Of a DNA stretch of 64,000 nt, positions 20,666 through 20,821 are shown piece after piece. This DNA comes from Promethearchaeota archaeon (lineage in GTDB: Archaea; Asgardarchaeota; Lokiarchaeia; Sigyniarchaeales; SOKP01). The number at the start of each line of letters is the position of its first letter. The stretch's first letter is position 1. The translations under genes and the position numbers were made by a program. Location: NCBI GenBank assembly GCA_013375475.1, contig JABXKD010000002.1, positions 50,313 through 114,312 of the forward strand, read 5' to 3'. Below the pieces are notes generated by a model. That model made no database searches, was not told where the DNA came from, and saw only the letters and a list, made by a program, of their open reading frames with translations.

Positions 20666-20821
20666 ATGATGTCCTTAGGTGACGAATTAAAAGAACAAAT
20701 AAAAAAAGGTGTGACTCTCCAAAAGGTTGACGAGGCAGACATGAAACAACGTGAAGAAGAGAAAAAGAAACGAATGGAAGAATTAGAAAAAGTAAAAGCA
20801 GCCTTAGGAGCAAAAGATTAA
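20666..20821 (+). CDS. 51-aa WH2-like mini-protein (not in ORF track)
   Basis: MMSLGDELKEQIKKGVTLQKVDEADMKQREEEKKKRMEELEKVKAALGAKD*; GAGTGA SD-like sequence upstream, T-rich tract downstream, coding-like composition. Confidence 0.8.
   Translation: MMSLGDELKEQIKKGVTLQKVDEADMKQREEEKKKRMEELEKVKAALGAKD

Follow-up and report, generated by a model that had tools for sequence, protein, structure and literature searches.

The 51-codon open reading frame at positions 20666-20821 of the window (the whole stretch of DNA analysed here, 64,000 nucleotides from a Promethearchaeota archaeon) is a real gene under strong purifying selection. According to profile searches, its product belongs to a new family that is restricted to one order, and we propose with moderate confidence that it is a free-standing WH2/β-thymosin-like peptide, predicted from its sequence to bind monomeric Lokiactin. 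Since the tests of membership in the Pfam WH2 and Thymosin families failed, we file the protein as one that would work like a WH2/β-thymosin peptide and not as a member of either family. The micro-protein may be an overlooked archaeal actin regulator.

Coding region and flanking signals

The 51-aa product (MMSLGDELKEQIKKGVTLQKVDEADMKQREEEKKKRMEELEKVKAALGAKD) is translated from an ATG at 20666 to a TAA at 20819-21, and the gene, which is single-copy in the window's genome, lies between the genes for a GNAT acetyltransferase (upstream) and Pelota (downstream). Its size, the Shine-Dalgarno-like site and the T-rich 3' end are as described by the initial annotation (Table 1). The ATG at 20666 is the supported start because it is the first ATG of the window's gene and aligns with the sole ATG in each of the 11 other orthologous loci of a 12-locus alignment. 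The Shine-Dalgarno-like sequence includes GAGTGAT at 20658-20664; its TTGAG part recurs in no fewer than 90% of the 12 loci (alignment columns T117, T118 and A120 show no variation, and G119 also reaches 90% or more), and we presume a role in ribosome binding. The T-rich region is a possible archaeal terminator.

Further upstream, a near-invariant block reads AAAC-CAAGACTTATAAATAAATTCTATTATA and spans two genera, while the remaining spacer varies. At 20568-20592, 23 of the 25 columns are invariant in the 12 loci and the flanks are variable. The 18-mer at 20576-20593, which occurs only once in the window, is found exactly in 19 of 30 close loci and in the same place with at most 3 mismatches in all 30; among nine distant loci its best match anywhere had 3-6 mismatches and none was located just upstream of the gene. 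The block at 20568-20598 is probably the small gene's own promoter region, either strong or regulated.

Table 1. Positions of the small gene, its flanking signals and the predicted parts of its product in the window
Feature	Position	Strand	Evidence
Upstream element with TATA-like TTATAAATA	20568..20598	+	near-invariant block in 12 loci
Shine-Dalgarno-like TTGAGTGAT, directly before the ATG	20656..20664	+	sequence and 12-locus conservation
Micro-protein CDS, stop included	20666..20821	+	ORF list, 119 homologue clusters, 12-locus start alignment, dN/dS ~0.08
Residues 4-14, predicted N-terminal amphipathic helix LGDELKEQIKK	20675..20707	+	AlphaFold2; aligns with the helix of WH2 repeats
Residues 15-22, predicted extended stretch G-V-T-L-Q-K-V-D	20708..20731	+	non-helical in the model; counterpart of WH2 G-x-x-L-K-K-V/T
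Residues 23-49, predicted long charged helix	20732..20812	+	AlphaFold2 model, pLDDT block means 88-93
T-rich 3' region with several T runs	20822..20869	+	sequence only

Conservation and phylogenetic distribution

A word-indexed search of 5.8 billion proteins returned 119 clusters of homologues (28-90 aa, E-values from 7.8e-21 to 1.3e-7; 44-52 residues at 61-100% identity). The named ones go under 'hypothetical protein', with source labels such as Lokiarchaeota, Promethearchaeota and other Asgard groups; the gene had been introduced as unannotated, which is correct only in part, since homologues are listed under that name in several NCBI and JGI records. Stop-free frames were found in 142 of 400 genomes of the phylum, the window's own genome counted. 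A comparison across 40 codons of 31 orthologues, for which 299 of the 465 pairs could be used, yielded a median pS of 0.64, a pN of 0.096 and a JC dN/dS of 0.084. Of the 22 sequencing runs listed for the locus, all are DNA metagenomes and none is from RNA.

A profile built from 41 diverse members matched, at E ≤ 1e-4, 141 of the 153 other genomes of the window's GTDB order (by family of the order: f1, 123 of 134; f2, 1 of 1; f3, 13 of 14; f4, 4 of 4) and, at the same threshold, none of the 246 genomes of the rest of the phylum. A narrower profile again matched 141 of 153, and added three weak matches (1.5e-4 to 8.5e-4) in one other family. Many of the surveyed genomes are incomplete, so that single absences mean little.

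Predicted structure

The AlphaFold2 model, calculated from a 38-sequence alignment (mean pLDDT 83.6, pTM 0.40), predicts a short helix, an extended stretch and a second, much longer helix (Table 1). The first two correspond to LGDELKEQIKKGVTLQKVD (residues 4-22), the peptide singled out by the initial annotation, and the charged helix described there as following it coincides with the predicted helix 23-49. Residues 4-14 and 15-22 together are predicted to have the WH2-type layout, i.e. a three-turn amphipathic helix, a linker and an extended motif of the L-K-K-V/T type. In β-thymosins, peptides of ~40-50 residues, an N-terminal helix leads into an extended motif of the LKK type and then into a C-terminal helix; the free micro-protein is predicted to have the same arrangement, in layout only. 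A Foldseek search of the PDB with the 51-aa model reported 0 matches at E ≤ 10, as expected for a model that consists of two helices.

The charged helix is the best-conserved part of the module and is without counterpart in the Pfam WH2 model; it is kept in 34 repeats from five tandem proteins (see below). In L042:4198-4362, from one genus (G132) in another family of the order, the N-terminal half of the free protein has diverged (DEDLKAGAENLAKV) and the charged helix is intact, which indicates that the helix is the more constrained part.

Relationship to WH2 and thymosin domains

Searches with the Pfam WH2 and Thymosin models, which the initial annotation had recommended, identified no match at E ≤ 10 in the window's protein or in 38 close relatives, and a six-frame scan of the genome with both models reported nothing at the locus of the small gene. 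(The same scans gave three weak matches elsewhere in the genome, with E-values of 0.3-1.8, two of which contain stop codons.) The NCBIfam collection reported for the 51-aa protein only XkdX (E = 0.067), under the cut-off of that model. The window's protein is hence outside Pfam WH2 (PF02205, gathering score 23.1 bits). Among the 41 wider representatives the WH2 model found 4 matches at E ≤ 10: one of them, P0144, is above the cut-off (23.7 bits, E = 3.6e-5) and is matched by the family profile with E = 5.3e-8, and another, P0139, scores 16.5 bits. Pfam Thymosin (PF01290), in turn, was absent from the best 25 of the 51 Pfam families matched by the 41 members, and membership in it was not obtained. 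In a comparison with a protein atlas, the cluster at rank 4, with a score of 0.83, carries Pfam Thymosin in 52% of its proteins, which is to be taken as a lead only. We also considered the free copy from Promethearchaeum syntrophicum MK-D1 as a β-thymosin and dropped it, as phmmer searches of the PDB and of Pfam gave no thymosin or WH2 match.

At the profile level the relationship to validated WH2 domains is seen both in the PDB and among proteins recognized by Pfam. The family profile, searched against the PDB (177,635 distinct sequences), ranked first the tandem WH2 region of N-WASP (3m3n_W, E = 9.6e-5), a construct crystallised with actin, followed by the WH2 domain of MIM at rank 3 (2d1k_C, E = 0.21) and another N-WASP structure at rank 4 (2vcp_D, E = 0.39), with all N-WASP and MIM alignments confined to profile positions 3-25; the significance of the first match comes only from the sum over three repeats, the per-repeat E-values of 4.9-56 being not significant singly. 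Searched against 1.84 billion cluster representatives, the profile gave 62 matches at E ≤ 1e-3, of which 17 are longer than the family. Four of these 17 resemble classical WH2/thymosin-repeat proteins (P0160, E = 7.3e-6; P0168, 5.7e-5; P0174, 3.4e-4; P0180, 8.8e-4) and are matched only through profile positions 4-35, the N-terminal half; three of the four pass Pfam WH2 (80.8, 45.8 and 23.3 bits). The hhalign comparison of the family with 14 WH2 repeats (probability 95.2%, 23 columns, query residues 4-26) places L8, I12, G15, L18, K20 and V21 on matching WH2 columns, a result that is partly circular because the 14 templates, taken from four repeat proteins, had been found through the family profile.

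By the terms of the initial annotation, loss of the I..G..LxKV motif in homologues would have spoken against its proposal, and this was not seen: I12, G15, L18 and K20 are invariant in 38 aligned close members, as are K33, R36, E38, E39, K42 and A46. Among the 41 representatives clustered at 50% identity, L18 does not vary at all and 90% or more of the sequences have G15. The first basic position of LKKV is occupied by Q, T, E, S or D in close relatives, in which V21 is common, while several of the more distant free-standing members among the 41 representatives carry LKKV itself. The description 'WH2-like' thus survives at the level of the family, whose profile reaches solved and Pfam-validated WH2 domains, one member of which passes the Pfam cut-off, and whose module is fused to a profilin-like domain (see below). 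The proposal of the initial annotation is supported in part only: Pfam misses the individual protein, binding of actin is a prediction, and WH2 does not account for the best-conserved part, the charged helix.

The module in larger proteins

A protein of ~250 aa, represented by 52 clusters, carries the module behind an N-terminal domain. For the N-terminal 120 residues the best Foldseek match is the Odin profilin in complex with rabbit actin (5zza_P, E = 1.7e-9, TM 0.89, rmsd 1.5 Å), followed by Loki profilins 1 and 2 and then by eukaryotic profilins, with the first Roadblock chain at rank 37; the identity to 5zzb and 5yee is 25-29%. Pfam Profilin (PF00235) scores the fusion at 19.1 and 21.6 bits, under its 25-bit cut-off, and a precomputed PF00235 match is present in 2 of the 52 clusters. 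By its predicted fold, then, the partner is a profilin that resembles the actin-binding profilins of Asgard archaea. The profilin domain is followed by 1-4 modules and then by a conserved C-terminal domain of ~45 aa, and the window's protein matches the module part of this family with E = 7.2e-10.

The module also forms tandem arrays of 8-10 units in proteins of 480-500 residues, with both halves retained; the consensus over 34 such repeats keeps L8, I12, G15, L18, K20, I/V21, D22, K33, R36 and K44. The cultured P. syntrophicum MK-D1 carries a tandem copy and a free 55-aa copy. A 479-aa protein with about ten tandem modules is encoded at L046:4812-6248 and, in MK-D1, at L063:7001-8437; next to its gene are those for a UPF0182 protein of 1042 aa and an AsnC-type regulator, a pair of neighbours that recurs in a further locus, L053. 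A search for related loci with the tandem protein found only 3 Promethearchaeum records. Free-standing, tandem and appended are the three ways in which WH2/β-thymosin units occur.

Other fusions have partners that are not specific to actin. In P0155, P0170, P0175 and the loci L047-L049 the module stands between leucine-rich repeats (LRR) and an RHH-like or zinc-finger stretch, and in L050 between a Ras-family GTPase (106.4 bits) and an RHH-like stretch; in these LRR, GTPase, RHH-like and zinc-finger fusions L-x-K-V is replaced by L-E-K-P. The RHH-like stretches resemble DUF6290 / NikA-like domains, under the cut-off. The one that follows the module in L047, L048, L049 and L050 (genomes G182, G226, G211 and G195) reads SHQTQSEFIRTAIWEKIR, while P0170 and P0177 end in a RING/zinc-ribbon-like stretch in its place. 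The window's own genome encodes a 134-aa protein (L006:1273-1677, contig C241) with an RHH-like N-terminus (KSEFIRTAIRHRIAEI) and then the module, for which Pfam at E ≤ 0.01 reported nothing.

Actin is favoured by the fusion to profilin and by the tandem arrays, whereas the LRR, GTPase and RHH-like architectures leave room for a module that is a general protein-protein adaptor, composed of a charged helix and a short docking motif, of the LRR/small-GTPase/RHH signalling proteins in which these archaea are rich; the free form would then be a regulator or competitor, and the resemblance to WH2 would be convergent and unrelated to actin. WH2 is indeed short enough for a convergent origin. The position of the module behind LRR domains and a Ras-family GTPase and ahead of RHH-like or zinc-finger stretches, the presence of an RHH-like + module protein in the same genome and the failure of Pfam WH2 to match the window's protein are all in agreement with such an adaptor, as is the observation that the profile match in fused forms often begins at position 10-18, so that the charged helix is the constant part. 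An adaptor leaves unexplained, however, why the N-terminal half of the profile picks WH2 proteins from the PDB and from among 1.84 billion proteins, and why it is joined to a domain with the predicted fold of an actin-binding Asgard profilin; moreover, the succession of LRR and then WH2 itself occurs in eukaryotic leiomodin. On balance we regard the adaptor as rather unlikely, but as an alternative that deserves attention. Some of the points that it draws on, namely the fusion partners, the charged helix as the best-conserved half and the failure of the Pfam models, also count against binding of actin. So do the per-repeat E-values of the N-WASP match, the occupation of the first basic position of LKKV in close relatives, the neighbouring genes (see below) and the distribution, the family being found in one order only, whereas Lokiactin, profilin and gelsolin are near-universal among Asgard genomes according to the accessible part of PMC13716822.

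Gene neighbourhood

The small gene belongs to a string at 18265-23109 that comprises genes for a nucleotidyltransferase (18265-18972), a radical SAM protein (18969-20120), the GNAT acetyltransferase (20110-20556), the small gene itself, Pelota (20968-22041, identified by eRF1 domains 1-3) and a second radical SAM protein (22072-23109); the nucleotidyltransferase, first radical SAM and GNAT genes overlap by a few bases.

All 30 close loci and 6 of the 9 distant loci (one of the six from another family of the order) have these genes in the same sequence, which could point to a small translation or ribosome-rescue factor that acts with Pelota, encoded directly downstream. We consider this very unlikely: in the three other distant loci (L040, L041 and L044) none of the string's neighbours was found within 8-8.5 kb around the gene, a gap of ~145 bases precedes Pelota, and among the fused proteins the module is never joined to a translation domain. 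Gene order can be inherited among relatives without a functional link, and we read it as inherited, given the conserved element that precedes the small gene itself.

The neighbours of the stand-alone and fused forms revealed no link to actin either: those in L046, L051, L052 and L053 encode AsnC-type regulators, UPF0182, methyltransferases, CheB, PPDK, a Macro domain protein and a Roadblock-Ras protein, and no actin gene is among them. At L051:5838-6800 a Roadblock/LC7 + Ras-family GTPase fusion, along with two genes for CheB-type methylesterases, adjoins a profilin + module gene.

Still less credible is a coiled-coil oligomerisation or nucleic-acid-associated peptide of the type of the H-NS N-terminus. 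The Histone_HNS_N model gives sub-threshold matches in 8 of the 41 members (best E = 1.3e-4, 22.2 bits versus a cut-off of 24.5) and DUF3006 in 11 of 41 and 16 of 38 members, and the module adjoins RHH-like stretches in fused proteins; yet none of these matches attains its curated cut-off, all of them involve the charged helix, whose composition is enough to produce such scores, no DNA-binding fold is predicted, and the invariant G15, L18 and K20 would have no explanation. As to a chance open frame or a non-coding region, suggested by an ORF that is short, AT-rich and missing from ORF lists with a 60-aa cut-off, its wide conservation as an open frame and the dN/dS of ~0.08 refute this reading and reduce its probability to a negligible value.

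Comparison with known actin-binding modules

With WH2 domains (PF02205; N-WASP 3m3n and 2vcp; MIM 2d1k) the module shares a short amphipathic helix followed by G-x-x-L-[K/x]-K-[V/T], the occurrence as a single, tandem or appended unit, the similarity at the profile level and one member that passes the Pfam cut-off. It departs from them in that the window's protein is unmatched by Pfam, Q, T, E, S or D usually replaces the first basic residue of LKKV, a conserved charged helix of 27 residues always follows, and the host is an archaeon. Like β-thymosins, the micro-protein is free-standing and is predicted to consist of a helix, an extended motif and a helix; unlike them, it is unmatched by Pfam Thymosin (the MK-D1 copy included), and its predicted C-terminal helix is much longer and has a conserved pattern of its own.

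Within Asgard archaea, the two-domain gelsolins are described, in the available portions of the reports, as having a WH2-like linker motif (LRRV, LKHV and LVDV in PMC9433394; LKDV in 10.1101/2025.11.30.690169). This linker shares with our module an LKKT-like four-residue motif, which in gelsolin contacts actin in crystal structures (as given in the accessible sections of PMC9433394), and it indicates, as far as these sections go, that actin regulators of the Asgard type use an LKKT-like contact. The gelsolin motif, however, lies between domains and is not preceded by an amphipathic helix as a free unit, whereas the micro-protein stands alone and is unrelated to gelsolin. A precedent for the fusion of profilin and a WH2-like unit is found in trypanosomatids (Leishmania), where, according to the part of PMC10907219 that was available, profilin and a WH2-like helix are combined in one polypeptide and both bind the same actin monomer. 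There the helix is an internal insertion in a eukaryotic profilin, while in the archaeal fusion the module follows the profilin domain in 1-4 copies, with the domain of ~45 aa behind them.

The full-text literature on WH2 and thymosin in Asgard archaea (subscription journals lying outside this scope) mentions, in its accessible portions, WH2-like motifs only as gelsolin linkers, and within the same full-text scope nothing was found in print on the micro-protein family. Reviews and a 2025/2026 paper on crawling motility (PMC13716822) treat, in the parts that could be accessed, only gelsolins and profilins as regulators of actin in Asgard archaea. We find it improbable, although worth stating, that a peptide of the WH2/β-thymosin type predates eukaryotes and is used by Lokiarchaeia in three formats like those of eukaryotes (free, in tandem with 8-10 units, and appended to profilin), so that archaea would have a third class of actin regulators in addition to gelsolin and profilin. 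The Lokiarchaeia module and eukaryotic WH2 possibly share ancestry, but the presence of the family in one order only speaks against simple vertical inheritance, which leaves convergence or transfer at least as likely as common descent. If actin binding is true, the free peptide, the tandem arrays and the profilin fusion would provide archaea with a further means of control, the sequestration of actin monomers and possibly their nucleation, and the family would be relevant to the question of how far the regulation of actin in eukaryotes is older than eukaryotes themselves.

Actin-side partners and the proposed mode of binding

Putative partners are present in the window's own genome, which encodes Lokiactin (441.7 bits with Pfam Actin) and three further actin-family genes as well as gelsolin-domain proteins and three profilin-like genes. 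The actin pocket for a WH2-like helix is formed by Tyr143, Ile345, Leu346 and Leu349, according to the accessible text of PMC10907219; these residues correspond to Y150, I352, L353 and L356 (offset 7, read from the local sequence), which are invariant in 30 Lokiactins. PMC9433394, in which Asgard actin regulators were assayed on rabbit actin, states in the portion at hand that Loki actins also conserve Asp25, the actin residue touched by the LKKT-like motif of Loki gelsolin.

For the WH2/β-thymosin-like peptide we infer every actin-binding step, and the effect on polymerisation, as follows. WH2 domains bind G-actin in the cleft between subdomains 1 and 3, and the N-terminal helix of the peptide would occupy this cleft. 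The stretch G15-x-x-L18-x-K20-V21 would run up the actin surface like the LKKV/T of WH2, and the charged helix 23-49 would reach toward the pointed face like the C-terminal helix of a β-thymosin, leading to sequestration of the monomer. Alternatively, the charged helix may bind a second partner.

Two profilin-like paralogues of the same genome (L058:1405-2022 and L059:742-1308, on contigs C234 and C251) carry, instead of the module, a different C-terminal extension that they share, with the pattern DP.LK.E..S.L.WIKD..GL..Y.NY.LQ.N.
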